In this document: positions 1-25,714 of the stretch, one piece after another
Layout of the letters: each line of letters opens with the position of its first letter
Numbering within the stretch: position 1 is the first letter of the stretch
Assembly: GCA_943789445.1 (NCBI GenBank)
Contig: CALSUC010000002.1
Coordinates: 12,256-76,255 of the forward strand
Reading direction: 5' to 3'
DNA: 64,000 bases
Source: an uncultured Gammaproteobacteria bacterium
GTDB lineage: Bacteria; Pseudomonadota; Gammaproteobacteria; UBA4575
Notes under the pieces: model-generated
The model's input: the letters and a program-made list of their open reading frames with translations, nothing else
Database searches by the model: none
What the model was told of the DNA's origin: nothing
Translations under genes and position numbers: made by a program

Positions 1-2521
1 TGCAGTGGGTGTCGCAGCGGCTGAGGCCAGCAAGGCCATTATCCACAGCACAGTACCGCTGACCATTACCCTGGACGATACAGCTCTGACAGCGGGTGAA
101 ACCGCAACGGTCACCTTTACCTTTCATGAGGCCGTCACTGATTTCGATAACAGTGATATAACCGTGGAAGGCGGCACGTTATCAACCGTGACTTCAGCGG
201 ATGATGGCATCACCTGGACAGCAACGTTCAGGCCGACAGCGGGCATCAAAGATGCCACTAACCTGATTAAAGTGGGCTACGACTGGACCTATGTTTCTTC
301 GGGTAATGCACCCGCTGTTGAGCATGGGCAGGTCAACGCAGCCTTTACTACGGTAGCGCCAGTGGGTGTGACTGTTTCTGGTATTGGTAACAGCATCACC
401 AAAACGGCGATGGGTGGCAGCGGTAATGCAGGCACCTTCTCGGATCAGGTCATCACTGCAGATGGCTCGGTATCGACTACGGTAGCTGAAACGAATACGG
501 CCCGTACGATTGGTCTTTCTGGCAGCGATACCGATGTAAGCTATAGCTCGATTGATTACGCGTTGATATGTGGGCCGATGGCTCGCTTCGTGTCTATGAA
601 AACCGCTCTAACAAGGGGTGGGTCGGTACTTATGCGACAGGCGATGAACTGAGTGTTGAGCGTACTGGCTCGACGATTACCTACCTGAAAAATGACGTAG
701 TACTCTACACCTCAAGAGTTGCTTCGACGGGTGATTTGCATGTGGATACCTCGCTTACTAGTAAAGGTGCTACATTGAACGACATCGTCATCAAAGGGGA
801 TAACCTGACTGCAGGCGCCACAGGCATCACTGCCAGTAGCGCTAATTTTTCGGTTGATACCGTCTACGCCACCGCTGACCATTACCCTGGACGATACAGC
901 TCTGACAGCGGGTGAAACCGCAACGGTCACCTTTACCTTTAATGAGGCCGTCACTGGTTTCGATAACAGTGATATAACCTTGGAAGGCGGCACGTTATCA
1001 GCCGTGACTTCAGCGGATGATGGCATCACCTGGACAGCAACGTTCACGCCGACAGCGGACATCAAAGATGCCACTAACCTGATTAAAGTGGGCTACGACT
1101 GGACCTATGTTTCTTCGGGTAACGCACCCGCTGTTGAGCAGGTCAACGCAGCCTTTACCACGGTAGCGCCAGTGGGTGTGACTGTTTCTGGTAACAGCAT
1201 CACCAAAACGGCGATGGGTGGCAGCGGTAATGCAGGCACCTTCTCGGATCAGGTCATCACTGCAGATGGCTCGGTATCGACTACGGTAGCTGAAACGAAT
1301 ACGGCCCGTACGATTGGTCTTTCTGGCAGCGATACCGATGTAAGCTATAGCTCGATTGATTACGCGTTGATATGCGGGCCGATGGCTCGCTTCGTGTCTA
1401 TGAAAACCGCTCTAACAAGGGGTGGGTCGGTACTTATGCGACAGGCGATGTACTGAGTGTTGAGCGTACTGGCTCGACGATTACCTACCTGAAAAATGAC
1501 GTAGTACTCTACACCTCAAGAGTTGCTTCGACGGGTGATTTGCATGTGGATACCTCGCTTACTAGTAAAGGTGCTACATTGAACGACATCGTCATCAAAG
1601 GGGATAACCTGACTGCAGGCGCCACAGACTTCATTACCAGTAGCGCTAATTTTTCGGTTGATACCGTCTCGCCACCGCTGACCATTACCCTGGACGATAC
1701 AGCTCTGGCAGCGGGTGAAACCGCAACGGTCACCTTTACCTTTAATGATGCCGTCACTGGTTTCGATAACAGTGATATAACCGTGGAAGGCGGCACGTTA
1801 TCAGCCGTGACTTCAGCGGATGATGGCATAACTTGGACAGCAACGTTCACGCCGACAGCGGACATCAGTGATAGCACTAACCTGATTAAAGTGGGCTACG
1901 ATTGGACCTATGTTTCTTCGGGTAACGCACCCGCTGTTGAGCAGGTCAACGCAGCCTTTACCACGGTAGCGCCAGTGGGTGTGACTGTTACTGGTAACAG
2001 CATCACCAAAACGGCGGGGAATGGCTGGGTAATGCAGGCACCTTCTCGGATCAGGTCATCACTGCAGATGGCTCGGTATCGACTACGGTAGCTGAAACGA
2101 ATACGCATCGTATGATTGGTCTTTCTGACAGCGATACCGATGCAAGCTATACCTCGATTGATTACGCGATTTATCTGCGGACGATGGTCGCTTGTGGTCT
2201 ATGAAAACGGCGCTAACAAGGGGCGTTCGGTAGCTATGCGACAGGCGATGTACTGAGTGTTGAGCGTACTGGCTCGACGATTACCTACCTGAAAAATGGC
2301 TCGGTATTCTACACCTCAACAGTTGCTTCGACGGGTGATTTGCATGTGGATACCTCGTTGTATACGACAGGTGCTACATTGAACGACATCGTCATCACTC
2401 AGGCGCCACAGACTTCATTGCCAGTAGCGCTAATTATGTTGTTAATACCGTCACGCCAACCATCACCATTGCTGATGTCGCGGGCGACAACACCATTAAC
2501 TACCTTGAAGACGATGTCACC

Positions 2522-3796
2522 GTGGCTATCTCAGGTACCACCACGGGGGTGGAAGATGGGCAAATTCTGACCGTGACACTGAATGGCAAGGATTACCAAG
2601 CGACGGTTTCAGGCAATGCCTGGAGTGTGGATGTGCCAGCAGCAGATGTGCAAGCATTAGCAGAGAGTAACCATAGCGTTACCGCCTTAGGAGAGAGTAA
2701 CCATAGCGTTACCGCCAATGTAACGAATGCAGTGGGTGTCGCAGCGGCTGAGGCCAGCAAGGCCATTATCCACAGCACAGCACCGCTGACCATTACCCTG
2801 GACGATACAGCTCTGACGGCGGGTGAGACCGCAACGGTCACCTTTACCTTTCATGAGGCCGTCACAGGTTTCGATAACAGTGATATAACCGTGGAAGGCG
2901 GCACGTTATCAACCGTGACTTCAGCGGATGATGGCATCACTTGGACAGCAACGTTCACGCCGACAGCGGACATCAAAGATGCCACTAACCTGATTAAAGT
3001 GGGCTACGACTGGACCTATGTTTCTTCGGGTAATGCACCCGCTGTTGAGCAGCTCAACGCAGCCTTTACCACGGTAGCGCCAGCGGGTGTGACTGTTTCT
3101 GGTATTGGTAACAGCATCACCAAAACGGCGCCTAGCTGGCATAATGCAGGCACCTTCTCGGATCAGGTCATCACTGCAGATGGCTCGGTATCGACTACGG
3201 TAGCTGAAACGAATACGGCCCGTACGATTGGTCTTTCTGACATCGATACCAATCTACTCTATAGCTCGATTGATTACGCGCTTCGTCTGAGGAGTGATGG
3301 CTCGCTTAGTGTCTATGAAAACGGCGATAATAGGGGGTGGTTCGGTACTTATTCGAGTGGCGATGTACTGAGTGTTGAGCGTACTGGCTCGACGATTACC
3401 TACCTGAAAAATGGCTCGGTATTCTACACCTCAACAGTTGCTTCGACGGGTGATTTGCATGTGGATACCTCGCTTTCTAGTGAAGGTGCTACATTGAACG
3501 ACATCGTCATCAAAGGGGATAACCTGACTGCAGGCGCCACAGACTTCACTGCCAATAGCGCTAATTTTTCGGTTGATACCGTCACGCCACCGCTGACCAT
3601 TACCCTGGACGATACAGCTCTGGCAGCGGGTGAAACCGCAACGGTCACCTTTACCTTTAATGATGCCGTCACTGGTTTCGATAACAGTGATATAACCGTG
3701 GAAGGCGGCACGTTATCAGCCGTGACTTCAGCGGATGATGGCATCACTTGGACAGCAACGTTCACGCCGACAGCGGACATCAGTGATAGCCACTAA
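2522..3796 (+). CDS. Longest intact adhesin fragment ORF in gene 1 (424 aa). It covers a module C tail, module A, module B and the next module A.
   Basis: ORF track. It contains a 24-nt internal micro-duplication (ESNHSVTALGESNHSVTA) at 2661..2715. Confidence 0.5.
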   Translation: MAISGTTTGVEDGQILTVTLNGKDYQATVSGNAWSVDVPAADVQALAESNHSVTALGESNHSVTANVTNAVGVAAAEASKAIIHSTAPLTITLDDTALTAGETATVTFTFHEAVTGFDNSDITVEGGTLSTVTSADDGITWTATFTPTADIKDATNLIKVGYDWTYVSSGNAPAVEQLNAAFTTVAPAGVTVSGIGNSITKTAPSWHNAGTFSDQVITADGSVSTTVAETNTARTIGLSDIDTNLLYSSIDYALRLRSDGSLSVYENGDNRGWFGTYSSGDVLSVERTGSTITYLKNGSVFYTSTVASTGDLHVDTSLSSEGATLNDIVIKGDNLTAGATDFTANSANFSVDTVTPPLTITLDDTALAAGETATVTFTFNDAVTGFDNSDITVEGGTLSAVTSADDGITWTATFTPTADISDSH

Positions 3797-4439
3797 CCTG
3801 ATTAAAGTGGGCTACGATTGGACCTATGTTTCTTCGGGTAACGCACCCGCTGTTGAGCAGGTCAACGCAGCCTTTACCACGGTAGCGCCAGTGGGTGTGA
3901 CTGTTACTGGTAACAGCATCACCAAAACGGCGGCGGATGGCTGGGTAATGCAGGCACCTTCTCGGATCAGGTCATCACTGCAGATGGCTCGGTATCGACT
4001 ACGGTAGCTGAAACGAATACGCATCGTATGATTGGTCTTTCTGACAGCGATACCAATGCAAGCTATAGCTCGATTGATTACGCGATTTATCTGCGGAACG
4101 ATGGCTCGCTTGTTGTCTATGAAAACGGCGCTAACAAGGGGCGTTCGGTAGCTTATTCGAGTGGCGATGTACTGAGTGTTGAGCGTACTGGCTCGACGAT
4201 TACCTACCTGAAAAATGGCTCGGTATTCTACACCTCAACAGTTGCTTCGACGGGTGATTTGCATGTGGATACCTCGTTGATACGACAGGTGCTACATTGA
4301 ACGACATCGTCATCACTCAGGCGCCACAGACTTCATTGCCAGTAGCGCTAATTATGTTGTTAATACCGTCACGCCAACCATCACCATTGCTGATGTCGCG
4401 GGCGACAACACCATTAACTACCTTGAAGACGATGTCACC

Positions 4440-5267
4440 GTGGCTATCTCAGGTACCACCACGGGGGTGGAAGATGGGCAAGTTCTGACCGTGACACTGA
4501 ATGGCAAGGATTACCAAGCGACGGTTTCAGGCAATGCCTGGAGTGTGGATGTGCCAGCAGCAGATGTGCAAGCATTAGCAGAGGGTAACCATAGCGTTAC
4601 CGCCAATGTAACGAATGCAGTGGGTGTCGCAGCGGCTGAGGCCAGCAAGGCCATTATCCACAGCACAGCACCGCTGACCATTACCCTGGACGATACAGCT
4701 CTGACGGCGGGTGAGACCGCAACGGTCACCTTTACCTTTCATGAGGCCGTCACTGATTTCGATAACAGTGATATAACCGTGGAAGGCGGCACGTTATCAA
4801 CCGTGACTTCAGCGGATGATGGCATCACCTGGACAGCAACGTTCACGCCGACAGCGGGCATCAAAGATGCCACTAACCTGATTAAAGTGGGCTACGACTG
4901 GACCTATGTTTCTTCGGGTAATGCACCCGCTGTTGAGCATGGGCAGGTCAACGCAGCCTTTACCACGGTAGCGCCAGTGGGTGTGACTGTTTCTGGTATT
5001 GGTAACAGCATCACCAAAACGGCGATGGGTGGCAGCGGTAATGCAGGCACCTTCTCGGATCAGGTCATCACTGCAGATGGCTCGGTATCGACTACGGTAG
5101 CTGAAACGAATACGGCCCGTACGATTGGTCTTTCTGGCAGCGATACCGATGTAAGCTATAGCTCGATTGATTACGCGTTGATATGCGGGCCGATGGCTCG
5201 CTTCGTGTCTATGAAAACCGCTCTAACAAGGGGTGGGTCGGTACTTATGCGACAGGCGATGTACTGA
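4440..5267 (+). CDS. Adhesin fragment ORF (275 aa) covering modules C, A and part of B.
   Basis: ORF track. Same repeat protein. Confidence 0.45.
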   Translation: MAISGTTTGVEDGQVLTVTLNGKDYQATVSGNAWSVDVPAADVQALAEGNHSVTANVTNAVGVAAAEASKAIIHSTAPLTITLDDTALTAGETATVTFTFHEAVTDFDNSDITVEGGTLSTVTSADDGITWTATFTPTAGIKDATNLIKVGYDWTYVSSGNAPAVEHGQVNAAFTTVAPVGVTVSGIGNSITKTAMGGSGNAGTFSDQVITADGSVSTTVAETNTARTIGLSGSDTDVSYSSIDYALICGPMARFVSMKTALTRGGSVLMRQAMY

Positions 5268-8200
5268 GTGTTGAGCGTACTGGCTCGACGATTACCTACC
5301 TGAAAAATGACGTAGTACTCTACACCTCAAGAGTTGCTTCGACGGGTGATTTGCATGTGGATACCTCGCTTACTAGTAAAGGTGCTACATTGAACGACAT
5401 CGTCATCAAAGGGGATAACCTGACTGCAGGCGCCACAGGCATCACTGCCAGTAGCGCTAATTTTTCGGTTGATACCGTCACGCCACCGCTGACCATTACC
5501 CTGGACGATACAGCTCTGACAGCGGGTGAGACCGCAACGGTCACCTTTACCTTTAATGAGGCCGTCACTGGTTTCGATAACAGTGATATAACCTTGGAAG
5601 GCGGCACGTTATCAGCCGTGACTTCAGCGGATGATGGCATCACCTGGACAGCAACGTTCACGCCGACAGCGGACATCAAAGATGCCACTAACCTGATTAA
5701 AGTGGGCTACGACTGGACCTATGTTTCTTCGGGTAACGCACCCGCTGTTGAGCAGGTCAACGCAGCCTTTACCACGGTAGCGCCAGTGGGTGTGACTGTT
5801 ACTGGTAACAGCATCACCAAAACGGCGGGGATGGCGCGGTAATGCAGGCACCTTCTCGGATCAGGTCATCACTGCAGATGGCTCGGTATCGACTACGGTA
5901 GCTGAAACGAATACGGCCCGTACGATTGGTCTTTCTGACAGCGATACCGATGTAAGCTATAGCTCGATTGATTACGCGTTGATATGCTGGGCCGATGGCT
6001 CGCTTCGTGTCTATGAAAACGGCTCTAACAAGGGGTGGGTCGGTACTTATGCGACAGGCGATGTACTGAGTGTTGAGCGTACTGGCTCGACGATTACCTA
6101 CCTGAAAAATGGCGTCGGTATTCTACACCTCAAGAGTTGCTTCGACGGGTGATTTGCATGTGGATACCTCGCTTTCTAGTACAGGTGCTACATTGAACGA
6201 CATCGTCATCAAAGGGGATAACCTGACTGCAGGCGCCACAGACTTCATTACCAGTAGCGCTAATTTTTCGGTTGATACCGTCGTCACGCCACCGCCGACC
6301 ATTACCCTGGACGATACAGCTCTGACGGTGGGTGAAACCGCAACGGTCACCTTTACCTTTAATGAGGCCGTCACTGGTTTCGATAACAGTGATATAACCG
6401 TGGAAGGCGGCACGTTATCAGCCGTGACTTCAGCGGATGATGGCATCACCTTGGACAGCAACGTTCACGCCGACAGCGGACATCAATGATGCCACTAACC
6501 TGATTAAAGTGGGCTACGATTGGACCTATGTTTCTTCGGGTAACGCACCCGCTGTTGAGCAGGTCAACGCAGCCTTTACCACGGTAGCGCCAGTGGGTGT
6601 GACTGTTACTGGTAACAGCATCACCAAAACGGCGGGGATGGCTGGTAATGCAGGCACCTTCTCGGATCAGGTCATCACTGCAGATGGCTCGGTATCGACT
6701 ACGGTAGCTGAAACGAATACGCATCGTATGATTGGTCTTTCTGACAGCGATACCGATGTAAGCTATACCTCGATTGATTACGCGTTGTATCTGGCGAACG
6801 ATGGTCGATTGGGGTCTATGAAAACGGCGCTAACAAGGGGAGTTCGGTACTTATGCGACAGGCGATGTACTGAGTGTTGAGCGTACTGGCTCGACGATTA
6901 CCTACCTGAAAAATGGCTCGGTATTCTACACCTCAACAGTTGCTTCGACGGGTGATTTGCATGTGGATACCTCGTTGTTAGTACAGGTGCTACATTGAAC
7001 GACATCGTCATCAAAGGGGATAACCTGACTGCAGGCGCCACAGACTTCATTGCCAGTAGCGCTAATTTTTCGGTTGATACCGTCACGCCACCGCTGACCA
7101 TTACCCTGGACGATACAGCTCTGACGGCGGGTGAAACCGCAACGGTCACCTTTACCTTTAATGAGGCCGTCACCGGTTTCGATAACAGTGATATAACCGT
7201 GGAAGGCGGCACGTTATCAGCCGTGACTTCAGCGGATGATGGCATCACCTGGACAGCAACGTTCACGCCGACAGCGGACATCAATGATGCCACTAACCTG
7301 ATTAAAGTGGGCTACGATTGGACCTATGTTTCTTCGGGTAACGCACCCGCTGTTGAGCAGGTCAACGCAGCCTTTACCACGGTAGCGCCAGTGGGTGTGA
7401 CTGTTACTGGTAACAGCATCACCAAAACGGCGGCGGATGGCTGGGTAATGCAGGCACCTTCTCGGATCAGGTCATCACTGCAGATGGCTCGGTATCGACT
7501 ACGGTAGCTGAAACGAATACGGCTCGTATGATTGGTCTTTCTGACAGCGATACCAATGTAAGCTATACCTCGATTGATTACGCGATTTATCTGCGGAACG
7601 ATGGTCGCTTGTGGTCTATGAAAACGGCGCTAACAAGGGGACGTTCGGTAGCTTATGCGACAGGCGATGTACTGAGTGTTGAGCGTACTGGCTCGACGAT
7701 TACCTACCTGAAAAATGGCTCGGTATTCTACACCTCAACAGTTGCTTCGACGGGTGATTTGCATGTGGATACCTCGTTGTATACGACAGGTGCTACATTG
7801 AACGACATCGTCATCAAAGGGGATAACCTGACTGCAGGCGCCACAGACTTCATTGCCAGTAGCGCTAATTTTTCGGTTGATACCTAGCCACCGCTGACCA
7901 TTACCCTGGACGATACAGCTCTGACGGCGGGTGAAACCGCAACGGTCACCTTTACCTTTAATGAGGCCGTCACTGGTTTCGATAACAGTGATATAACCTT
8001 GGAAGGCGGCACGTTATCAGCCGTGACTTCAGCGGATGATGGCATAACTTGGACAGCAACGTTCACGCCGACAGCGGACATCAATGATGCCACTAACCTG
8101 ATTAAAGTGGGCTACGATTGGACCTATGTTTCTTCGGGTAACGCACCCGCTGTTGAGCAGGTCAACGCAGCCTTTACCACGGTAGCGCCAGTGGGTGTGA

Positions 8201-9356
8201 CTGTTACTGGTAACAGCATCACCAAAACGGCGGCGGTGGCTGGGTAATGCAGGCACCTTCTCGGATCAGGTCATCACTGCAGATGGCTCGGTAGTCGACT
8301 ACGGTAGCTGAAACGAATACGGCTCGTATGATTGGTCTTTCTGACAGCGATACCGATGCAAGCTATACCACGATTGATTACGCGATTTTTCTGCGGAACG
8401 ATGGTCGCTTGTGGTCTTTGAAAACGGCGCTACAAGGGGACGTTCGGTAGCTTATGCGACAGGCGATGTACTGAGTGTTGAGCGTACTGGCTCGACGATT
8501 ACCTACCTGAAAAATGGCTCGGTATTCTACACCTCAACAGTTGCTTCGACGGGTGATTTGCATGTGGATACCTCGTTGTATACGACAGGTGCTACATTGA
8601 ACGACATCGTCATCAAAGGGGATAACCTGACTGCAGGCGCCACAGACTTCATTGCCAGTAGCGCTAATTTTTCGGTTGATACCTCTGCCACCGCTGACCA
8701 TTACCCTGGACGATACAGCTCTGGCGGCGGGTGAAACCGCAACGGTCACCTTTACCTTTAATGAGGCCGTCACTGGTTTCGATAACAGTGATATAACCTT
8801 GGAAGGCGGCACGTTATCAGCCGTGACTTCAGCGGATGATGGCATCACCTGGACAGCAACGTTCACGCCGACAGCGGACATCAGTGATAGCCACTAACCT
8901 GATTAAAGTGGGCTACGACTGGACCTATGTTTCTTCGGGTAACGCACCCGCTGTTGAGCAGGTCAACGCAACCTTTACCACGGTAGCGCCAGTGGGTGTG
9001 ACTGTTACTGGTAACGACATCACCAAAACGGCGGCGTGGCTGGGTAATGCAGGCACCTTCTCGGATCAGGTCATCACTGCAGATGGCTTTATGTCGACTA
9101 CGGTAGCTGAAACGAATACGTATCGTATGATTGGTCTTTCTGACAGCGATACCGATGTAAGCTATACCACGATTGATTACGCGATTTTTCTGGCGAACAA
9201 TGGTGCGCTTCTTGTCTTTGAAAACGGCGCTTACAAGGGGGGTTCGGTAGCTATGCGACAGGCGATGTACTGAGTGTTGAGCGTACTGGCTCGACGATTA
9301 CCTACCTGAAAAATGGCTCGGTATTCTACACCTCAACAGTTGCTTCGACGGGTGAT

Positions 9357-9908
9357 TTGCATGTGGATACCTCGTTGTATACGACAGGTGCTACATTGAA
9401 CGACATCGTCATCAAAGGGGATAACCTGACTGCAGGCGCCACAGACTTCATTGCCTCTAGCGCTAATTTTTCGGTTGATACAGCAGGTACAGCAGCTATT
9501 GTAGGTACTTCAGGAGCAGATACCCTTGTAGGTGATGCAAATGATAATATCATCACAGGTGGTGATGGAGACGATACGATGACTGGTAGTGGTGGTCATG
9601 ATATCTTTGATTTCAATCTTTCGACCTTAGGGAATACAGATACGATATCTGATTTCATACTGGGAGCTGAAGCAACAGCGGATACGGATAAATTAGATTT
9701 AAGTGACTTACTCTCTTATACAACCGGTGATGACTTGGCACACTTTATTCAAGTGCTAGATGGTGGTACAGATGTCACGCTAAACATTGATAAAGATGGT
9801 GAATCTGATTTTACGACCCCTGAGCAGATAATTATTTTAGAAGGTATTGGAACAGGTTCTTTGGACTTGGCTGCTTTGACAGCGGACGATAATCTAGTCG
9901 TTTTATAA
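9357..9908 (+). CDS. C-terminal fragment of adhesin 1. RTX calcium-binding nonapeptide repeats plus the T1SS C-terminal target domain occupy 9483..9908.
   Basis: GGxGxDxxx repeats and the DLSDLL motif are present. A stop at 9906-9908 is followed by the terminator. Confidence 0.7.
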   Translation: MHVDTSLYTTGATLNDIVIKGDNLTAGATDFIASSANFSVDTAGTAAIVGTSGADTLVGDANDNIITGGDGDDTMTGSGGHDIFDFNLSTLGNTDTISDFILGAEATADTDKLDLSDLLSYTTGDDLAHFIQVLDGGTDVTLNIDKDGESDFTTPEQIIILEGIGTGSLDLAALTADDNLVVL

Positions 9909-10047
9909 AAAGTAGCGATAAATAAAAGCCCTCACTAACGTTGTTGTTTGGTGAGGGCTTTTTTTTTGTAGTACAAGCAACGTATCATAAGTAATTACTC
10001 GGTAATGCCGAGGGCTACTAGTGATTGAATAAGATTGATACTGCCCT
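9909..10047. repeat. Copy 1 of an identical ~139-bp direct repeat forming the 3' flank of an adhesin gene. It contains a terminator.
   Basis: The string 'aaagtagcgataaataaaagccctcactaacgttgttgtttggtgagggcttttttttt...gattgatactgccct' is identical to 19169..19307. The flanks diverge immediately after (10048 'ttcggg' versus 19308 'aaacat'). Confidence 0.9.
9928..9967 (+). terminator. Rho-independent terminator of adhesin 1.
   Basis: Stem gccctcac(9928-9935)/gtgagggc(9951-9958) followed by a T9 run. Confidence 0.85.
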
Positions 10048-13030
10048 TTCGGGTGCTCACCTAATGCCTTTATTATCCGCTGCCCCAGAGCGACCACAAG
10101 TCGTCGATCTACGCGCTCAAGGGCATGCGCCGGTCAATGTGATTATTTCTTGTTACATGACTGGAGTTACCTGCTTTTCCAAATATAGTCAAAGATAACC
10201 TAACTTAATTTTGGTGAGGTTTGACCGCTCAGTTCGGACTTTAAGACGGATTAAAGTGCTCTTCTTTATTTGGTTAATATATAATTTTTTTGTTTTTATG
10301 GGGCTCCAGTTAATGCGAGCTGCCGCTGAATAAAAATAATCTATAAAACAATATGTAACAGATAGCGGGCATGGGGAGATCCACATTGCCTAGGATTTAG
10401 AATTCAGCCGATGGTGGCAGGCCTAGTATGGCCGCTTACCTAAAAGATGCGAGTTGGCTACTCGGAGATAGTGGACTGCGTATTAATTATTGTACTTTTT
10501 AACAGTTCACTAAATATTATAAAAATTAAAGGTAGCATGGTTATGAGTGAAAAAATTCAAGAAGCGACCAGCTCAATGTATAAGAATTCAAGGGGTGTCG
10601 CAGCGGCTGAGCAGCAAGGCCATTATCTATCACAGCACAGCACCGCTGACCATTACCCTGGACGATACAGCTCTGACGGCGGGTGAAACCGCAACGGTCA
10701 CCTTTACCTTTAATGAGGCCGTCACCGGTTTCGATAACAGTGATATAAGCTTGGAAGGCGGCACGTTATCAGCCGTGACTTCAGCGGATGATGGCATCAC
10801 CTGGACAGCAACGTTCACGCCGACAGCGGACATCAAAGATGCCACTAACCTGATTAAAGTGGGCTACGACTGGACCTATGTTTCTTCGGGTAACGCACCC
10901 GCTGTTGAGCAGCTCAACGCAGCCTTTACCACGGTAGCGCCAGTGGGTGTGACTGTTACTGGTAACAACATCACCAAAACGGCGGGGGAGGCTGGGCTAA
11001 TGCAGGCGCCTTCTCGGATCAGGTCATCACTGCAGATGGCTCGGTAGTCGACTACGGTAGCTGAAACGAATACGGCCCGTATGATTGGTCTTTCTGACAG
11101 CGATACCGATGCAAGCTATGCCACGATTGATTACGCGATTTATTTGCGGAACGATGGCTGCGCTTGTGTCTTTGAAAACGGCGCTAGCAAGGGGACGTTC
11201 GGTACTTATTCGAGTGGCGATGTACTGAGTGTTGAGCGTACTGGCTCGACGATTACCTACCTGAAAAATGGCTCGGTATTCTACACCTCAGCGGTTGCTT
11301 CGACGGGTGATTTGCATGTGGATACCTCGTTGCATACGACAGGTGCTACATTGAACGACATCGTCATCAAAGGGGATAACCTGACTGCAGGCGCCACAGA
11401 CTTCATTGCCTCTAGCGCTAATTTTTCGGTTGATACCGTCAGCCACCGCTGACCATTACCCTGGACGATACAGCTCTGACGGCGGGTGAAACCGCAACGG
11501 TCACCTTTACCTTTAATGAGGCCGTCACCGGTTTCGATAACAGTGATATAACCGTGGAAGGCGGCACGTTATCAGCCGTGACTTCAGCGGATGATGGCAT
11601 CACTTGGACAGCAACGTTCACGCCGACAGCGGACATCAATGATGCCACTAACCTGATTAAAGTGGGCTACGATTGGACCTATGTTTCTTCGGGTAACGCA
11701 CCCGCTGTTGAGCAGCTCAACGCAGCCTTTACCACGGTAGCGCCAGTGGGTGTGACTGTTACTGGTAACAGCATCACCAAAACGGCGGGGGTGGCTGGGC
11801 TAATGCAGGCACCTTCTCGGATCAGGTCATCACTGCAGATGGCTCGGTAGTCGACTACGGTAGCTGAAACGAATACGGCTCGTATGATTGGTCTTTCTGA
11901 CAGCGATACCGATGCAAGCTATAGCCACGATTGATTACGCGATTTATCTGCGGAACGATGGTGCGCTTGTGGTCTTTGAAAACGGCGCTAGCAAGGGGAC
12001 GTTCGGTACTTATTCGAGTGGCGATGTACTGAGTGTTGAGCGTACTGGCTCGACGATTACCTACCTGAAAAATGGCTCGGTATTCTACACCTCAACGGTT
12101 GCTTCGACGGGTGATTTGCATGTGGATACCTCGTTGCATACGACAGGTGCTACATTGAACGACATCGTCATCAAAGGGGATAACCTGACTGCAGGCGCCA
12201 CAGACTTCATTGCCAGTAGCGCTAATTTTTCGGTTGATACCATCACCACCGCTGACCATTACCCTGGACGATACAGCTCTGACGGCGGGTGAAACCGCAA
12301 CGGTCACCTTTACCTTTAATGAGGCCGTCACTGGTTTCGATAACAGTGATATAACCGTGGAAGGCGGCACGTTATCAGCCGTGACTTCAGCGGATGATGG
12401 CATAACTTGGACAGCAACGTTCACGCCGACAGCGGACATCAATGATGCCACTAACCTGATTAAAGTGGGCTACGATTGGACCTATGTTTCTTCGGGTAAC
12501 GCACCCGCTGTTGAGCAGGTCAACGCAGCCTTTACCACGGTAGCGCCAGTGGGTGTGACTGTTACTGGTAACAGCATCACCAAAACGGCGGCGATGGCTG
12601 GGCTAATGCAGGCACCTTCTCGGATCAGGTCATCACTGCAGATGGCTCGGTATCGACTACGGTAGCTGAAACGAATACGGCTCGTATGATTGGTCTTTCT
12701 GACAGCGATACCGATGCAAGCTATACCACGATTGATTACGCGATTTATCTGCGGAACAATGGCTCGCTTGGGGTCTTTGAAAACGGCGCTAACAAGGGGA
12801 CGTTCGGTAGCTTATGCGACAGGCGATGTACTGAGTGTTGAGCGTACTGGCTCGACGATTACCTACCTGAAAAATGGCTCGGTATTCTACACCTCAACAG
12901 TTGCTTCGACGGGTGATTTGCATGTGGATACCTCGTTGCATACGACAGGTGCTACATTGAACGACATCGTCATCAAAGGGGATAACCTGACTGCAGGCGC
13001 CACAGACTTCATTGCCTCTAGCGCTAATTT

Positions 13031-13837
13031 TTGGTTAATACCGTCACGCCAACCATCACCATTGCTGATGTCGCGGGCGACAACACCATTAACTACCTTG
13101 AAGACGATGTCGACGTGGCTATCTCAGGTACCACCACGGGGGTGGAAGATGGGCAAGTTCTGACCGTGACACTGAATGGCAAGGATTACCAAGCGACGGT
13201 TTCAGGCGATGCCTGGAGTGTGGATGTGCCAGCAGCAGATGTGCAAGCATTAGCAGAGGGTAACCATAGCGTTACCGCCAATGTAACGAATGCAGTGGGT
13301 GTCGCAGCGGCTGAGGCCAGCAAGGCCATTATCCATAACAGCACAGCACCGCTGACCATTACCCTGGACGATACAGCTCTGGCGGCGGGTGAAACCGCAA
13401 CGGTCACCTTTACCTTTAATGAGGCCGTCACTGGTTTCGATAACAGTGATATAACCGTGGAAGGCGGCACGTTATCAGCCGTGACTTCAGCGGATGATGG
13501 CATCACTTGGACAGCAACGTTCACGCCGACAGCGGACATCAATGATGCCACTAACCTGATTAAAGTGGGCTACGATTGGACCTATGTTTCTTCGGGTAAC
13601 GCACCCGCTGTTGAGCAGGTCAACGCAGCCTTTACCACGGTAGCGCCAGTGGGTGTGACTGTTACTGGTAACAGCATCACCAAAACGGCGGCGAATGGCT
13701 GGACTAATGCAGGCACCTTCTCGGATCAGGTCATCACTGCAGATGGCTCGGTATCGACTACGGTAGCTGAAACGAATACGGATCGTATGATTGGTCTTTC
13801 TGACAGCGATACCAATGCTAAGCTATACCACGATTGA
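13031..13837 (+). CDS. Adhesin 2 fragment ORF (268 aa) covering modules C, A and the start of B.
   Basis: ORF track. Confidence 0.45.
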   Translation: MVNTVTPTITIADVAGDNTINYLEDDVDVAISGTTTGVEDGQVLTVTLNGKDYQATVSGDAWSVDVPAADVQALAEGNHSVTANVTNAVGVAAAEASKAIIHNSTAPLTITLDDTALAAGETATVTFTFNEAVTGFDNSDITVEGGTLSAVTSADDGITWTATFTPTADINDATNLIKVGYDWTYVSSGNAPAVEQVNAAFTTVAPVGVTVTGNSITKTAANGWTNAGTFSDQVITADGSVSTTVAETNTDRMIGLSDSDTNAKLYHD

Positions 13838-14648
13838 TTACGCGATTTATCTGCGGAACAATGGTGCGCTTGGGGTCTATGAAAACGGCGCTAACAAGGG
13901 GACGTTCGGTAGCTATGCGACAGGCGATGTACTGAGTGTTGAGCGTACTGGCTCGACGATTACCTACCTGAAAAATGGCTCGGTATTCTACACCTCAACA
14001 GTTGCTTCGACGGGTGATTTGCATGTGGATACCTCGTTGTATACGACAGGTGCTACATTGAACGACATCGTCATCAAAGGGGATAACCTGACTGCAGGCG
14101 CCACAGACTTCATTGCCTCTAGCGCTAATTTTTCGGTTAATACCGTCACGCCAACCATCACCATTGCTGATGTCGCGGGCGACAACACCATTAACTACCT
14201 TGAAGACGATGTCGACGTGGCTATCTCAGGTACCACCACGGGGGTGGAAGATGGGCAAGTTCTGACCGTGACACTGAATGGCAAGGATTACCAAGCGACG
14301 GTTTCAGGCGATGCCTGGAGTGTGGATGTGCCAGCAGCAGATGTGCAAGCATTAGCAGAGGGTAACCATAGCGTTACCGCCAATGTAACGAATGCAGTGG
14401 GTGTCGCAGCGGCTGAGGCCAGCAAGGCCATTATCCATAACAGCACAGCACCGCTGACCATTACCCTGGACGATACAGCTCTGGCGGCGGGTGAAACCGC
14501 AACGGTCACCTTTACCTTTAATGAGGCCGTCACTGGTTTCGATAACAGTGATATAACCGTGGAAGGCGGCACGTTATCAGCCGTGACTTCAGCGGATGAT
14601 GGCATCACCTTGGACAGCAACGTTCACGCCGACAGCGGACATCAATGA
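13791..14648 (+). CDS. Adhesin 2 fragment ORF (285 aa) covering modules B, C and A.
   Basis: ORF track. Confidence 0.45.
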   Translation: MVFLTAIPMLSYTTIDYAIYLRNNGALGVYENGANKGTFGSYATGDVLSVERTGSTITYLKNGSVFYTSTVASTGDLHVDTSLYTTGATLNDIVIKGDNLTAGATDFIASSANFSVNTVTPTITIADVAGDNTINYLEDDVDVAISGTTTGVEDGQVLTVTLNGKDYQATVSGDAWSVDVPAADVQALAEGNHSVTANVTNAVGVAAAEASKAIIHNSTAPLTITLDDTALAAGETATVTFTFNEAVTGFDNSDITVEGGTLSAVTSADDGITLDSNVHADSGHQ

Positions 14649-16876
14649 TACCACTAACCTGATTAAAGTGGGCTACGATTGGACCTATGTTTCTTCGGGT
14701 AACGCACCCGCTGTTGAGCAGGTCAACGCAGCCTTTACCACGGTAGCGCCAGTGGGTGTGACTGTTACTGGTAACAGCATCACCAAAACGGCGGCGGATG
14801 GCTGGTAATGCAGGCACCTTCTCGGATCAGGTCATCACTGCAGATGGCTCGGTATTCGACTACGGTAGCTGAAACGAATACGCATCGTATGATTGGTCTT
14901 TCTGACAGCGATACCAATGCTAAGCTATACCTCGATTGATTACGCGATTTATCTGCGGACAATGGTGCGCTTGGGTCTATGAAAACGGCGCTAACAAGGG
15001 GACGTTCGGTACTTATGCGACAGGCGATGTACTGAGTGTTCAGCGTACTGGCTCGACGATTACCTACCTGAAAAATGGCTCGGTATTCTACACCTCAACA
15101 GTTGCTTCGACGGGTGATTTGCATGTGGATACCTCGTTGATACGACAGGTGCTACATTGAACGACATCGTCATCGACTCAGGCGCCACAGACTTCATTGC
15201 CACTAGCGCTAATTATTTGGTTAATACCGTCACGCCAACCATCACCATTGCTGATGTCGCGGGCGACAACACCATTAACTACCTTGAAGACGATGTCGAC
15301 GTGGCTATCTCAGGTACCACCACGGGGGTGGAAGATGGGCAAGTTCTGACCGTGACACTGAATGGCAAGGATTACCAAGCGACGGTTTCAGGCGATGCCT
15401 GGAGTGTGGATGTGCCAGCAGCAGATGTGCAAGCATTAGCAGAGGGTAACCATAGCGTTACCGCCAATGTAACGAATGCAGTGGGTGTCGCAGCGGCTGA
15501 GGCCAGCAAGGCCATTATCTATAACAGCACAGCACCGCTGACCATTACCCTGGACGATACAGCTCTGGCGGCGGGTGAAACCGCAACGGTCACCTTTACC
15601 TTTAATGAGGCCGTCACTGGTTTCGATAACAGTGATATAACCGTGGAAGGCGGCACGTTATCAGCCGTGACTTCAGCGGATGATGGCATCACCTTGGACA
15701 GCAACGTTCACGCCGACAGCGGACATCAATGATACCACTAACCTGATTAAAGTGGGCTACGATTGGACCTATGTTTCTTCGGGTAACGCACCCGCTGTTG
15801 AGCAGGTCAACGCAGCCTTTACCACGGTAGCGCCAGTGGGTGTGACTGTTACTGGTAACAGCATCACCAAAACGGCGGCGGATGGCTGGTAATGCAGGCA
15901 CCTTCTCGGATCAGGTCATCACTGCAGATGGCTCGGTATCGACTACGGTAGCTGAAACGAATACGCATCGTATGATTGGTCTTTCTGACAGCGATACCAA
16001 TGTAAGCTATACCTCGATTGATTACGCGATTTATCTGCGGACAATGGTGCGCTTGTGGTCTATGAAAACGGCGCTAACAAGGGGACGTTCGGTACTTATG
16101 CGACTGGCGATGTACTGAGTGTTCAGCGTACTGGCTCGACGATTACCTACCTGAAAAATGGCTCGGTATTCTACACCTCAACAGTTGCTTCGACGGGTGA
16201 TTTGCATGTGGATACCTCGTTGATACGACAGGTGCTACATTGAACGACATCGTCATCAAAGCGGATAACCTGACTGCAGGCGCCACAGACTTCATTGCCA
16301 GTAGCGCTAATTTTTCGGTTAATACCATCACGCCAACCATCACCATTGCTGATGTCGCGGGCGACAACACCATTAACTACCTTGAAGACGATGTCAACGT
16401 GGCTATCTCAGGTACCACCACGGCGGTGGAAGATGGGCAAGTTCTGACCGTGACACTGAATGGCAAGGATTACCAAGCGACGGTTTCAGGCAATGCCTGG
16501 AGTGTGGTGTGCCAGCAGCAGATGTGCAAGCATTAGCAGAGGGTAACCATAGCGTTACCGCCAATGTAACGAATGCAGTGGGTGTCGCAGCGGCTGAGGC
16601 CAGCAAGGCCATTATCTATAACAGCACAGCACCGCTGACCATTACCCTGGACGATACAGCTCTGACGGCGGGTGAAACCACTCAGGTTACCTTTACCTTT
16701 CATGAGGCCGTCACGTGGAAAATTTTGACATCAATGATATTGCGGTTGAAAACGGCACCCGTTCATCGAGTCCTGTCGACTTCAGATGATGTGGAATAAC
16801 TTCACAGCAACATTAACGCCAGATTCTGCCGCGGCCGATAGCACCAATAAAATTTCCGTGGGTAATCGCTGGAACT

Positions 16877-18220
16877 TTGTTGGGTCTGCTCCTGAATCGG
16901 GTAATAAACCGGTTGTGTTTGTATCAGAAGTTGGTGTGGACACGATTGGTAATAATATTTTTAAAACGGCGGCGACTGGCTGGTAATGCAGGCACCTTCT
17001 CGGATCAGGTCATCACTGCAGATGGCTCGGTATCGACTACGGTAGCTGAAACGAATACGCATCGTATGATTGGTCTTTCTGACAGCGATACCAATGTAAG
17101 CTTTACCTCGATTGATTACGCGATTTATCTGAGGAGCAATGGTGCGCTTGCGGTCTTTGAAAACGGCGCTAACAAGGGGGAGTTCGGTACTTATTCGAGT
17201 GGCGATGTACTGAGTGTTGAGCGCTTCGGCTCGACGATTACCTACCTGAAAAATGGCTCGGTATTCTACACCTCAACAGTTGCTTCGACGGGTGATTTGC
17301 ATGTGGATACCTCGTTGCATACGACAGGTGCTACATTGCAAAATGTGGTTATCAATAATGGCGAGTTGGTTAGCAGTAATAATTATGCGGTGAACACTCT
17401 GACGCCAACCATTAATATTGATGCGATTGCCACAGATAATGTTTTGGATTTCGTTGAAGATAATCACTCGTTGCTTGTCACCGGTACAACCACCAACGTA
17501 TCAGATGGGCAAGTGGTGACTGTGACTATCGCCGGTGTCGAGTATACGAGCAGTGTGACGGGTAATGTATGGGGCGTTAAGGTGCCGCAGGCGGTTGCTG
17601 CGGCGCTATCCTCAAGCGTTACGGTGGCTGTGAGTGTCAGTAACGCATCAGGCGTTAACGCAACGGCCAATACGACTTTCACTCACACTACTGATGAGCC
17701 TGTGGTCATTACTATCAGTGATAATGATATAGATTCATCAGAAACGGCCGTGGTTACCTTCCGGTTCAAGGAGGCTGTTACAGACTTCGAGCTTGCTGAT
17801 ATTAATGTGGATTCAGGCACCTTATCTAATCTTGTTAGCACGGATGGCGGTACAACCTTCACCGCGACCTTTACACCAACACCGGGTGTGAAGAGCGACG
17901 TCAGCAAAATCTCGATTGGTTCCAATTGGACGTATCAGTCGTCTGGTGCATCGCCTGTAGTATCAGACATCAAGGTCGCCTTTGAAAATGAAGTGGGTGT
18001 TGATGTAACTACTAATAATATTGTCAAAACAGGATTTGCTGGTTGGACTTCAGGTGCCTTTTCTGAGAATTCCCTGGCAGGGGATGGTTACGTTGCAACT
18101 ACGGTAGCTGAAACGAATACGCATCGTATGATTGGTCTTTCTGACAGCGATACCAATGTAAGCTTTGACACGATTGATTACGCGTTTATCTGCGTGCAAT
18201 GGTGCGCTTGTGGTCTTTGA
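16877..18220 (+). CDS. Adhesin 2 fragment ORF (447 aa) spanning the diverged repeat copies B, C', A'' and B'.
   Basis: ORF track. It is ~50% identical to the homogenised copies (TVAETNTHRMIGLSDSDTNVSF is retained). Confidence 0.5.
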   Translation: MLGLLLNRVINRLCLYQKLVWTRLVIIFLKRRRLAGNAGTFSDQVITADGSVSTTVAETNTHRMIGLSDSDTNVSFTSIDYAIYLRSNGALAVFENGANKGEFGTYSSGDVLSVERFGSTITYLKNGSVFYTSTVASTGDLHVDTSLHTTGATLQNVVINNGELVSSNNYAVNTLTPTINIDAIATDNVLDFVEDNHSLLVTGTTTNVSDGQVVTVTIAGVEYTSSVTGNVWGVKVPQAVAAALSSSVTVAVSVSNASGVNATANTTFTHTTDEPVVITISDNDIDSSETAVVTFRFKEAVTDFELADINVDSGTLSNLVSTDGGTTFTATFTPTPGVKSDVSKISIGSNWTYQSSGASPVVSDIKVAFENEVGVDVTTNNIVKTGFAGWTSGAFSENSLAGDGYVATTVAETNTHRMIGLSDSDTNVSFDTIDYAFICVQWCACGL

Positions 18221-18448
18221 AAACGGCATTAGCAAGGGGGCGTTCGGTAGCTATGCGACAGGCGATGTACTGAGTGTTCAGCGTACTGGCTCGACGATTA
18301 CCTACCTGAAAAATGGCTCGGTATTCTACACCTCAACAGTTGCTTCGACGGGTGATTTGCATGTGGATACCTCGTTGGATACGACAGGCAGTACATTAAA
18401 GAATATTGTGATCAGCGATGGAAGGCTTGCACCAGCAGCGATTACAGC

Positions 18449-19153
18449 GTGGATACGCAGTTTAGTCTTGAAAATGCTAGCGTGGCGGGTAATCAAGTTG
18501 TGCTCACCTTTGATGCGACGATTAATGCACTTAGCACTCCGTCACTTCAATCTTTTGATATTCAGGTTGATGGCGCGACCAGAAACGTTACGGCGATTTC
18601 CTTTTCGGGCAATACGGCTACGTTAACCATTGATGGAAAAGCGGTGGTTGATACTGATTCAGTCGAATTCTCTTATAGTCAGCTAGGTTCTGCTGGTTTT
18701 GAGAGTGCTGCGGGAGCTGTTGTTGCTAATAACAACATTGAGGCTGTGTTTGGCACCACAGGTAATAATGCTATTTCTGGAACCTCTGCCAGTGAATATG
18801 TGTTTGGTGGCAGTGGTAATGATACTATTACTGGTGGTGCTGGGAATGATATTCTGACAGGTGGCGCTGGTAGCGATACTTTTGATTACAACAACACTAC
18901 AGATGGCAGCGACACCATTACCGACTTTACCGTGGGGAGTGGTGGTGACAGCTTAGATTTACGTGACCTTTTAGATTACGCTAGTGGTGATACCTTAGCT
19001 GACTACATTGAATTGACAAACGATGGGACAGACGTCACCTTAAAAATAGATAAAGACGGGGGCGGTGATGAATTTACCAGCCCTGATGTAACAATTACTC
19101 TACAAGGGATCAATGATGCAGCAGGTTACTTTGGCATCACTAGAGACCGATAA
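18449..19153 (+). CDS. C-terminal fragment of adhesin 2. It carries a unique beta-rich region, RTX repeats and the T1SS C-terminal target domain.
   Basis: Contains GGSGNDTITGGAGNDILTGGAGSDTFDY and DSLDLRDLLDY. The stop is followed by the terminator copy. Confidence 0.7.
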   Translation: MDTQFSLENASVAGNQVVLTFDATINALSTPSLQSFDIQVDGATRNVTAISFSGNTATLTIDGKAVVDTDSVEFSYSQLGSAGFESAAGAVVANNNIEAVFGTTGNNAISGTSASEYVFGGSGNDTITGGAGNDILTGGAGSDTFDYNNTTDGSDTITDFTVGSGGDSLDLRDLLDYASGDTLADYIELTNDGTDVTLKIDKDGGGDEFTSPDVTITLQGINDAAGYFGITRDR

Positions 19154-19168
19154 CTTAGCCGTATTGTA

Positions 19169-19307
19169 AAAGTAGCGATAAATAAAAGCCCTCACTAACG
19201 TTGTTGTTTGGTGAGGGCTTTTTTTTTGTAGTACAAGCAACGTATCATAAGTAATTACTCGGTAATGCCGAGGGCTACTAGTGATTGAATAAGATTGATA
19301 CTGCCCT
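19169..19307. repeat. Copy 2 of the ~139-bp direct repeat (3' flank of adhesin 2).
   Basis: Identical to 9909..10047. Confidence 0.9.
19188..19227 (+). terminator. Rho-independent terminator of adhesin 2 (identical to the 9928..9967 copy).
   Basis: Same hairpin and T-run. Confidence 0.85.
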
Positions 19308-19470
19308 AAACATGTGTCTCAGGATGTAAGTCCTCAGTGTTTGAGTATTTTTGCGAATAAATAACCAAAAAAGATATTGAGGTATAGGAAACTTATAAAC
19401 GCGCCAGCCGTTTCTAATGGCTGGATTGGTTTATACTGAGTGCTCTTTAAATTTATAGCCCAGCAAAATC

Positions 19471-20973: not shown

Positions 20974-21070
20974 CCTGCCTTTTGCCGATTTCTTGAGCGA
21001 GTATTTTGCACGTCAATAAGATCGCACTTAATGATTTAAGCGATGCCGTTTAAAGGTATGGAGATAAAAA

Positions 21071-21484
21071 ATGTATAAGAAATATATCGTGATGCTGGCC
21101 CTGTTTTTGTGTACGAGTGTGGTGCAGGCCGAGTTGGAACATATTACGGTGCAGCAGCTGTCGGCATTGATGGAAGAAGGCATCACTGTTATCGATATCC
21201 GTACCCCTGAAGAATGGCAACAAACTGGCATTGTCGAGGGCAGTCATCCGATTATGTTTTTTGATCAAAAGGGTAAGCCACATATCGAAGAATGGATGCA
21301 GCAAACCGATGACTTAATTAATCCTGAGCAAGCAGTGATCTTGATCTGTCGTTCGGGTAATCGCACTACGAGTGTCGGCACTTTTCTCAGCAAACAATTG
21401 GGTTTTAAACAGGTGTATAGCGTGAAGGGTGGTATTAACAGTTGGTTGAAGGCAGGGAACAAGACACAGCCGCTTGAACCATAG
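21071..21484 (+). CDS. Single-domain rhodanese-like sulfurtransferase with an N-terminal signal peptide.
   Basis: Has a hydrophobic leader (MYKKYIVMLALFLCTSVVQA), an active-site loop CRSGNRT and a GGAG RBS. Confidence 0.8.
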   Translation: MYKKYIVMLALFLCTSVVQAELEHITVQQLSALMEEGITVIDIRTPEEWQQTGIVEGSHPIMFFDQKGKPHIEEWMQQTDDLINPEQAVILICRSGNRTTSVGTFLSKQLGFKQVYSVKGGINSWLKAGNKTQPLEP

Positions 21485-21489
21485 GGGGA

Positions 21490-24525: not shown

Positions 24526-24531
24526 GTTGTT

Positions 24532-25708: not shown

Positions 25709-25714
25709 TATGAG

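Follow-up and report, generated by a model that had tools for sequence, protein, structure and literature searches.

The window, i.e. the whole stretch of 64,000 nucleotides that was analysed, carries at positions 1-19153 of its forward strand two tandem genes for type I-secreted RTX adhesins, which appear as many short ORFs in the ORF map. Adhesin gene 1 (1-9908, +), delimited by the ORF map, Pfam/NCBIfam models and the C-terminal alignment to a homologous protein of contig L027, lacks its 5′ part, which lies beyond the window edge, and stops with a TAA at 9906-9908. It is made up of tandem units of a Big_12 domain and a second module, here called module B, then an RTX/T1SS C-terminus, and its tail aligns with the RTX end of the L027 protein. 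Adhesin gene 2 (10537-19153, +) probably starts at ATG 10537 or 10543, as judged from the sequence, and contains repeat units, a diverged C-terminal region and RTX nonapeptides with a T1SS C-terminal signal. The Pfam and NCBIfam searches returned Big_12 (3.6e-53) and Ca_tandemer in the array, and HemolysinCabind (1.2e-12) and TIGR03661 (2.1e-13) on 18449-19153, the C-terminus of gene 2.

The count and spacing of the anchor ATCACCAAAACGGCG, which occurs 17 times versus 0.1 expected by chance, define 17 repeat units (395-16962, +). The anchors start at 395, 1199, 2002, 3116, 3918, 5010, 5813, 6620 and 7418 for the first nine units and at 8218, 9019, 10970, 11773, 12576, 13676, 14779 and 15863 for the last eight, all on the forward strand. 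A unit, composed of a Big_12 Ig domain and a ConA-like module B of ~145 residues, measures ~801 nt, or ~1100 nt with an additional Ig-like module, and the units are mutually 85-100% identical. On the 3′ side of gene 1, a terminator-like hairpin was read directly at 9928-9967 (+), with the structure GCCCTCAC-N15-GTGAGGGC followed by T9; the pattern scan, limited to loops of up to 8 nt, did not report it. The hairpin belongs to a 140-nt tail (9908-10047) identical to the one following gene 2 (19168-19307), which forms repeat family D12. No ABC transporter, membrane fusion protein or TolC-like gene and no N-terminal retention module was recognised among the scanned ORFs of the window, the 5′ end of gene 1 lying outside it. 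As an island, the adhesin pair varies between strains and is missing in related ones: the Illumina-type contigs reached via the neighbouring RND pump have no adhesin island beside gshA.

A protein-guided, frameshift-aware alignment of the 15 complete units revealed 49 frameshifts and one in-frame stop codon, with additional frameshifts at 9019-9272 and 15863-16962, beyond these units. A reference-free minimum count gave at least 24 unavoidable frame switches in gene 1 and at least 23 in gene 2, at least 47 in total, and 11 of the 17 anchor-to-anchor distances are not divisible by 3. The preliminary description, made from the letters of the window, had estimated roughly 40 disruptions, which is the right order and slightly too low. 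Once the frame is corrected, the units show 85-99% identity to intact units, and a single stop codon remains in ~4,400 codons, versus the 49 frameshifts. An in-frame TAG, already noticed and then placed at 7887-7889, in fact lies at 7885-7887 (+), where the VDT-(V)(V)TP-P junction varies between units (columns 152-160); the orthologous copy in L001, a second long-read metagenome contig, has one additional T at this place and is likewise out of frame. The breaks had been assigned to two recurrent hotspots, but the alignment columns show that they recur at about ten or more unit positions, namely the linker and columns 25, 46, 57-65, 75-78, 121, 139, 152-160, 312 and 326. Their density reaches ~4 events per kb in tiles with 10 or more copies, and a few events occur in diverged copies. 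Four frame switches (16797, 16984, 18218 and 18624) lie in adhesin segments for which the window contains no second version with 90% identity or more, and three of these four coincide with the hotspots named above, in diverged copies of the unit.

The stretch from ATCACCAAAACGGCG to AATGCAGGC, described at first as a linker with at least eight length variants, is indeed diverse, with 13 distinct sequences of which frame-shifting forms are part, but it takes only four lengths (12-15 nt); 7 of 17 copies are in frame. One out-of-frame example, gggaatggctgggt (14 nt), is found at 2017-2030 (+), and the out-of-frame form TGGGTAATGCAGGC also occurs at 3933-3946, 7433-7446 and 8233-8245, plus six L001 copies; where 11 long-read copies have TGGGTAATGCAGGC, L027 has TGGGGTAATGCAGGC. 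An in-frame TAA, previously ascribed to one linker, does occur, but in two, at 14806-14808 (+), where it results from the 13-nt linker gcggatggctggTAAtgc, and at 15890-15892. The linker at 13691-13705 (+) is an in-frame member of the TGGGTAATGCAGGC family (gcg aat ggc tgg act, A-N-G-W-T, then NAG), and AAxGWxNAG is probably the true form of this family. Linkers of intact copies read AMGGSGNAG, GWNGDGNAG, VSGWSNGAG, APSWHNAG, AANGWTNAG and GAKGWNAG. The stretch is not a plain Gly-rich interdomain linker, because the ConA-like module already starts within it, with a Trp that hardly varies and the xAG motif. Residues are conserved on either side of each shift; in the linker, for example, W precedes the shift and NAG follows it.

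A second hotspot was confirmed in the interval from GATTACGCG to GATGG. Its example at 563-591 (+), in unit columns 57-65, is ttgatatgtgggcc, which lacks the polymorphic base of ttga[g/a]tatg, and the same class of event is found at 1367, 2169, 5178, 6785, 7585, 8385, 14947 and 16029. Examples of out-of-frame alleles in the array are GATGGCATCACCTTGGACAGC, CATCACCTTGG, GATAGCCACT, GGTAGCTTAT, TTGATACGACA and CTGGGTAATGC.

The breaks lie on the differences between copies. Of 48 core events, 44 fall on codons that are variable in a set of seven intact units, versus 34.5% expected (p=1.6e-16), a statistic that is inflated because the alignment program favours mismatching codons for frameshifts. 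When this placement bias was allowed for by counting events within one codon on either side of a variable codon, 46 of 48 events qualified, versus 63.7% expected (p=1.5e-7). Among the single +1 insertions, 13 of 17 juxtapose both alleles of an inter-copy SNP, and deletion of either base yields a haplotype present elsewhere. Thus CACCTGG and CACTTGG give CACCTTGG, as at 6445-6454 (+), where atcaCCTTgg equals atcacctgg plus atcacttgg; the same insertion is found at 14604 and 15688. Of the 22 single −1 deletions, 13 hit a base that is multi-allelic, and 19 can be restored to a haplotype found elsewhere. Most indels are not of the homopolymer kind: 31 of the 52 indel bases lie outside such runs, and the runs involved do not exceed 4 nt. 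There is no simple-sequence tract at the hotspots, Tandem Repeats Finder yielding just one 30-nt and one 27-nt repeat, and by inspection no shared methylation-type motif was found there.

The preliminary description had proposed a comparison with orthologous loci. The alignment of window positions 1-8615 with the orthologous array of L001 (12355-21008) shows 92 mismatches and, in addition, 44 gap events, of which 37 are 1 nt long. The larger indels, of 3, 6, 6 and 15 nt, mostly keep the frame, which would be expected of real differences. Most indels differ between the two contigs. Unit types that are broken in the window can be intact in L001, seven units there forming a single 1486-aa ORF, and the opposite case also occurs. 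About ten frameshifts are common to both, notably the TGGGTAATG linker and a −1 shift at unit position 58. These shared events could be real mutations that both inherited; equally, L001 probably comes from the same platform and pipeline, so that systematic errors can recur there.

The unique flanks present a different picture. Versus the sister contig L025 they show 15 mismatches and 3-5 gaps over 8.9 kb, and versus the Illumina-style contig L005 they show 708 mismatches and one uncompensated coding indel over 15.3 kb, i.e. indel to substitution ratios of about 3:15 and 1:708 versus 44:92 in the array. A global alignment of the gene 2 tail with L025 proved not to be orthologous and was set aside. 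The ~45 kb of unique genes had been credited with one frameshift, in the porin, which is indeed split at ~46663; the control region gshA (19471-20973, +) adds a window-specific +1 insertion at ~20951-20954 that replaces the last 22 GshA residues, so that at least two frameshifts are seen outside the adhesins.

Homologues of the adhesin are intact elsewhere. Two JGI contigs, L027 and L028, which are probably short-read contigs, carry a homologue of ~88% identity whose reading frame runs uninterrupted for 1175 and 773 aa, respectively, through 2.5-3.5 units and the RTX end; as they represent another lineage, their open frames do not prove that the genes of this strain are intact. A megablast search of the repeat stretch against complete E. 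coli genomes gave no match, and the C-terminal region of gene 2, compared with one genome per GTDB species, found just distant relatives (~40% identity) in unrelated MAGs. Exact look-ups of the database proteins P0001 and P0003 and of the window GshA matched no contigs.

Taken together, these data make it very probable that the frame breaks are assembly consensus errors in near-identical repeats and not features of the DNA of the organism. The position and form of the indels, together with the non-inheritance of most of them, are shown by the sequence comparisons, as are the intact homologues. Errors of this origin are expected to be mostly small indels with few substitutions or nonsense codons, to be limited to repeats with clean flanks and to sit at copy differences as allele hybrids, and this is what was found: 49 frameshifts versus one stop with 1-nt gaps dominating, ~4 events per kb in the most repeated tiles versus two frameshifts in ~45 kb of unique genes, and the 44/48 and 13/17 proportions given above, although a few events do occur in diverged copies. 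Allele doubling, the bias to variable codons and the comparisons with L001 and the flanks strongly support the chimeric consensus or polishing artefact that had been one of three explanations put forward. Published work describes errors that survive short-read polishing in repeats (PMC8812927) and names frameshifts by indels as the typical, main defect of long-read assemblies (PMC9262707; 10.1101/2021.08.23.457338).

We propose that only long reads could span the array of near-identical units and that reads or segments from different copies, possibly also from co-existing strains, would be stacked on the same draft position. Where the copies differ, the consensus may have kept the two alleles next to each other, which adds one base (+1), or may have left out the disputed base, a −1 deletion. 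A further component, of a systematic kind, would be a G4 run of the linker called too short, TGGGGTAAT being read as TGGGTAAT; one homologue on a probable short-read contig has TGGGGTAAT versus TGGGTAAT in the long-read contigs. The unique genome around the locus is clean, either through polishing with short reads, which cannot be placed in near-identical repeats, or because copy ambiguity does not arise there. What can be said of the platform and of the polishing history is inferred from the type of error and from the names and sizes of contigs, the sister contigs having Flye-style names and sizes of 0.03-1.2 Mb.

The mixed pile-ups could also stem mainly from co-assembled strains with different arrays rather than from the copies of a single genome, a version of the artefact that we consider possible but rather unlikely. 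Closely related contigs of the same project, L001, L025 and L026 (ERZ10646675, ERZ10646689), differ in unit number, and gene 2 measures ~9 kb in the window versus ~14 kb in L001, in agreement with such a mixture; however, the unique flanks bear no sign of it, and confusion between copies is sufficient because the fused alleles occur in neighbouring copies of the same contig.

That both adhesins are true pseudogenes, with real 1-2-nt indels spread among copies by gene conversion, is improbable. Some frameshifts do occupy the same unit position in several copies, in the window and in L001, and the adhesin pair could be dispensable because the island is missing in related strains. Nevertheless, inherited inactivation with nonsense and missense changes in proportion to the indels was not found: there is one nonsense codon versus 49 frameshifts (about 50 indels in all), and most indels are unshared by orthologous copies that differ by ~1% in substitutions. 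Moreover, the insertions copy the alternative allele of a neighbouring copy, which mutation would not do repeatedly, the events keep away from the 65% of codons in which the copies do not differ, and W and NAG are retained on either side of the linker shift. Together with the intact homologues on probable short-read contigs, this speaks against the real decay of both genes that had been considered at first. A narrower reading, in which a subset of the frameshifts, those common to the window and L001 (e.g. the TGGGTAATG linker, 11 copies), is real and reflects recent inactivation or readthrough at recurrent −1 sites, the other events being assembly noise, is very improbable.

Hypermutable hotspots, i.e. 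real frameshifts that would switch expression or yield variants by phase variation or programmed diversification of the N-terminal segment of module B, are scarcely credible: linker length and sequence do differ among intact copies and lineages, but most indels lie outside homopolymers and no simple-sequence tract is present, 10 or more event sites are spread across both domains and not in the linker alone, and ~25 shifts per gene cannot be a switch because one frameshift already abolishes a protein of at least 3000 aa. Slipped-strand phase variation was rejected as the sites have no simple-sequence repeat or long homopolymer, and diversification by a diversity-generating retroelement as the indels are unlike its adenine-specific substitutions. 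The hypervariability of the linker, the third of the original explanations, thus stands for the in-frame diversity of the intact copies, the GW-x-NAG segment at the N-terminus of module B really varying between copies in frame; the frame-shifting forms are very probably errors on top.

As a probable case of long-read (Nanopore-type) repeat error, the array is typical in its mainly 1-nt indels that fragment ORFs, in their accumulation where reads lack unique placement while the unique genome is clean, and in the homopolymer undercall of G4 as G3. Unlike the usual errors, most events double or drop alleles at inter-copy SNPs, which is less often described. Contingency genes share with this locus the surface adhesin and frame-changing lengths at recurrent positions, but not the lack of a simple-sequence repeat or long homopolymer, nor the dozens of simultaneous shifts per gene.

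The true adhesin genes are most likely intact, and in the units of their products a Big_12 Ig domain would alternate with a beta-sandwich module of the ConA-like kind. They resemble the giant T1SS RTX adhesins (LapA/BapA/SiiE/MpIBP; NCBIfam NF033510, 'Ca2+-stabilized repeat-containing adhesin') in their Big_12/Ca_tandemer arrays and in the C-terminal RTX nonapeptides with the TIGR03661 T1SS target domain, and differ from them in the alternation of Ig with a ~145-aa ConA-like/SPRY-like jelly-roll and in the tandem arrangement of two genes with identical 140-nt tails. Module B matches no Pfam or NCBIfam model. A phmmer search against the PDB gave only non-significant matches (Pyocin L1, E=0.77; filamin, E=0.45), and the AlphaFold model of a 424-aa ORF, with a pLDDT below 50 for module B, was left out of the fold search. 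A B-lectin identity was considered and gave way to the ConA-like fold; module B is a widespread but unmodelled repeat domain.

The main value of these observations is one of caution. Gene callers cut both adhesins into ~50 fragments, and the protein database already lists such fragments as separate 'proteins' of 200-500 aa (P0001, P0002, P0006 and others). Loci of this kind distort pseudogene counts, pangenome statistics and domain censuses of long-read MAGs. The signature of doubled and dropped alleles is visible from sequence alone and could serve to flag or repair such regions, whose underlying genes belong here to an ordinary class, the RTX adhesins.

The plus strand of window positions 1-19153 appeared in the ORF map as a mosaic of short ORFs, the translations of which matched Big_12 (3.6e-53, Pfam/NCBIfam) and also the NCBIfam 'Ca2+-stabilized repeat-containing adhesin' repeat, with RTX nonapeptides and the T1SS C-terminal target domain TIGR03661 at 18449-19153. 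Gene 1 (+) enters at the left window edge and stops with TAA at 9906-9908, followed by a hairpin, GCCCTCAC-N15-GTGAGGGC, and a T9 run. The probable start of gene 2 (+) is ATG 10537 or 10543, and the gene next after the adhesins is gshA (19471-20973, +). The 140-nt tail following gene 1 (9908-10047) is an exact repeat of the one following gene 2 (19168-19307), both including the terminator hairpin, and near-identical units are common to the two genes; tails and units together point to a recent duplication or gene conversion behind the pair. The anchor ATCACCAAAACGGCG, found 17 times where chance predicts 0.1, delimits units of ~801 nt (~1100 nt where an extra Ig-like module is included) that are 85-100% identical to each other over long stretches.

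The frame breaks reported in the preliminary description are present in the sequence. The length of 11 of the 17 units is not divisible by three. Using a custom DNA-to-protein aligner permitting frameshifts, with the intact units of the related contig L001 as references, we counted 49 frameshifts and one in-frame stop across 15 complete units, with additional frameshifts beyond them at 9019-9272 and 15863-16962. A reference-free count put the minimum number of frame switches at 24 in gene 1 and 23 in gene 2. The in-frame TAG exists, at 7885-7887 rather than 7887-7889, and the in-frame TAA created by the linker arises at both 14806 and 15890. Events are not restricted to the linker and a second hotspot (unit columns 57-65), as had been proposed, and recur at no fewer than 10 unit positions.

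The seven intact L001 units were codon-aligned and the differing codons marked, which amounted to 92 of 267 core columns. Forty-four of the 48 core events of the window fell on these variable codons (34.5% expected, p=1.6e-16). With a tolerance of one codon, which allows for the aligner's bias toward placing shifts on mismatching codons, the count was 46 of 48 (63.7% expected, p=1.5e-7). The long stretches over which the units do not vary are practically free of events, as is directly visible in the unit alignment, and 31 of 52 indel bases lie outside homopolymers. Four of the frame switches are in parts of the adhesins for which the window has no copy that is >=90% identical; in three cases the site is the linker or the second hotspot within a diverged copy of the unit (16984, 18185-18218).

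Every copy was tabulated between conserved flanks, and the out-of-frame alleles were compared with the in-frame ones. The former proved to be hybrids of in-frame alleles found in other copies: atcacctgg and atcacttgg give atcaccttgg, gatgcc and gatagc give gatagcc, ggtagctat and ggtacttat give ggtagcttat, aatgtaagc and gatgcaagc give aatgctaagc, and gtctcg and gtcacg give gtctacg. In the same way, a base is dropped where ttg[t/c/a]atacg reads ttgatacg, ggt[g/a]cgctt reads ggtcgctt and ttga[g/a]tatg reads ttgatatg. In 13 of the 17 single +1 insertions, deleting either of two bases yielded two different haplotypes, both present elsewhere in the arrays. Among 22 single -1 deletions, 13 affected a base with at least two alleles and 19 could be restored to a haplotype found elsewhere. 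That the inserted base is repeatedly the allele of a neighbouring copy indicates the consensus of a mixed pile-up and not mutation.

The linker, at the low-confidence N-terminal edge of module B, holds a nearly invariant Trp and an xAG motif. It exists in 13 distinct sequences but in four lengths (12-15 nt), not at least eight, and is in frame in 7 of 17 copies. The intact copies read AMGGSGNAG, GWNGDGNAG, VSGWSNGAG, APSWHNAG, AANGWTNAG, GAKGWNAG and AAAGWNAG, a diversity that is real and in frame. Genuine hypervariability, which had been offered as one explanation, thus describes the in-frame variation only; all out-of-frame copies are members of a single family short of one base, GCG GCG nnn GGC TGG G-T AAT GCA GGC. 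In this family, the conserved Trp is read in the frame before the shift and N-A-G in the frame after it, so that one base is missing from the single codon between them. The equivalent in L027, a homologous contig that is probably a short-read assembly, reads AGC TGG GGT AAT GCA GGC, which points to a systematic G4-to-G3 undercall; this would also account for the recurrence of the linker shift in both long-read contigs, the window and L001.

The protein database already holds fragments of the adhesin locus as separate small proteins, and their close relatives lie on a few large contigs only. L001 (ENA ERZ10646675 contig_7820, 1.21 Mb) carries the same tandem pair followed by gshA, fragmented in a different pattern from the window, with seven intact units in total and a 1486-aa uninterrupted ORF over five of them. 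Fragmented copies are also found on L025 (ERZ10646689 contig_27689) and L026 of the same project. We infer that the three are long-read assemblies from their Flye-style names, their large size and their 97-100% identical 800-nt arrays, spannable by long reads only. Between window 1-8615 and L001 12355-21008 we counted 92 mismatches along with 44 gap events. Single-base gaps make up 37 of these events, and the lengths of the longer gaps are for the most part divisible by three (3, 6, 6 and 15 nt). The controls gave a very different picture. A comparison of 8.9 kb of unique flank (window 19160-28100) with L025 yielded 15 mismatches and 5 gaps; the three small gaps comprise two intergenic ones, one of these in a T run, and an insertion in gshA. 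Against L005, a contig with a MEGAHIT-type name from a related strain, window 19301-34600 shows 708 mismatches and one uncompensated single-base coding indel. The indel:substitution ratio is thus one to two orders of magnitude higher in the array than in the flanks, and the array indels are mostly private to one assembly, both of which fit poorly with inherited mutations.

Considering the position of the events on codons that vary between copies, the hybrid alleles and the clean flanks, the frame breaks are very probably an assembly artefact specific to near-identical repeats, caused by ambiguous placement of long reads, possibly with strain mixing. Ambiguous placement would keep both alleles or lose a base at inter-copy SNPs, with undercalling of short G runs as an additional component; the unique genome would either have been polished by a method unable to act in repeats or have been free of the problem from the start. 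This behaviour of repeats has been described (PMC8812927), and indel frameshifts are likewise documented as the chief defect that remains in long-read assemblies (PMC9262707; 10.1101/2021.08.23.457338). Real decay of both adhesin genes is improbable. About 10 shifts are common to the window and L001 and may be inherited, real frameshifts, although we attribute them to one systematic error, repeated where the sequence context is the same. A pseudogene of an age to have gained ~50 indels should show many nonsense and radical changes, whereas the units, once frame-corrected, match intact ones at 85-99% identity and contain one stop in ~4,400 codons. Biological hypermutation or phase variation is hardly credible, since simple-sequence tracts are absent and dozens of shifts per gene could not work as a switch.

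Outside the adhesins we found two frameshifts rather than the porin alone. The Porin_4 gene (46373-47622, +) is split at ~46663 into ORFs 46373-46663 and 46663-47622, the latter matching profile positions 81-309 only. The other is a +1 insertion at 20951-20954, at the 3' end of gshA, which is missing from L025 and from Illumina-style L005 and replaces the last 22 residues of GshA (...TKQR|TNRSGR* vs ...TKQRKIEAADSLPFADFLSEYFACQ*); it is probably another consensus error.

Gene 2 spans ~9 kb in the window vs ~14 kb in L001; either the number of units differs between the two or one of the assemblies has collapsed some of them. The window and the orthologous L001 copy (P0122: ...SVTALGESNHSVTANV) share a 30-nt in-frame tandem duplication in the extra Ig-like module (window 2657-2716, two copies, 96% identical); unlike the unshared 1-nt indels, this duplication is probably real. 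On L026 (ERZ10646675 contig_14756), a third, paralogous adhesin locus lies beside type II secretion genes at 6063-14469, likewise broken (ORFs of 168-803 aa) and followed by an intact 1340-aa Big_5/Big_12 protein. In strains whose RND pump is 96-98% identical (Illumina-type contigs, L005-L024), the genes after gshA are DUF2322, amidase_2 and groEL/ES and an adhesin is lacking, which makes the tandem pair a strain-variable island inserted beside gshA. Several short-read contigs stop directly 3' of gshA. The closest named relatives are annotated 'MAG: Gammaproteobacteria bacterium' only; Fae, the formaldehyde-activating enzyme (34642-35190, -), and a PPi-dependent phosphofructokinase (52032-53294, -) suggest a methylotrophic gammaproteobacterium as host.

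JGI metagenome contigs were scanned with a conserved unit 22-mer, which matched two, Ga0209199_1015727 (L027, 5.1 kb) and Ga0206130_10043040 (L028, 3.3 kb), whose size suggests short-read assemblies. Both are ~88% identical to the window units with linkers in frame, and are open over 1175 aa (3.5 units) and 773 aa (2.5 units), respectively, each with the RTX end. Module B, the ~145 aa after the linker, is present in every unit (one intact copy at 3140-3577) and had no Pfam or NCBIfam match. Its AlphaFold2 model, from a 41-segment homologue alignment (pLDDT 87.7, pTM 0.81), resembled in Foldseek ConA-like jelly rolls (SPRY, CBM66, galectin, GH16, LamG; E ~1e-4, TM 0.5-0.58), and a ConA-like/SPRY/CBM66-like jelly roll is therefore the confidently predicted fold. 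A search with only module B (E<=1e-3) matched 4,202 representative proteins, in which the module occurs up to 25 times; among them are intact proteins of 5,433 aa with 19 copies and 6,469 aa with 25. Such giants indicate that the architecture is normally expressed as one huge ORF, and module B appears to be a repeat domain that is widespread in giant adhesins and still lacks a family model.
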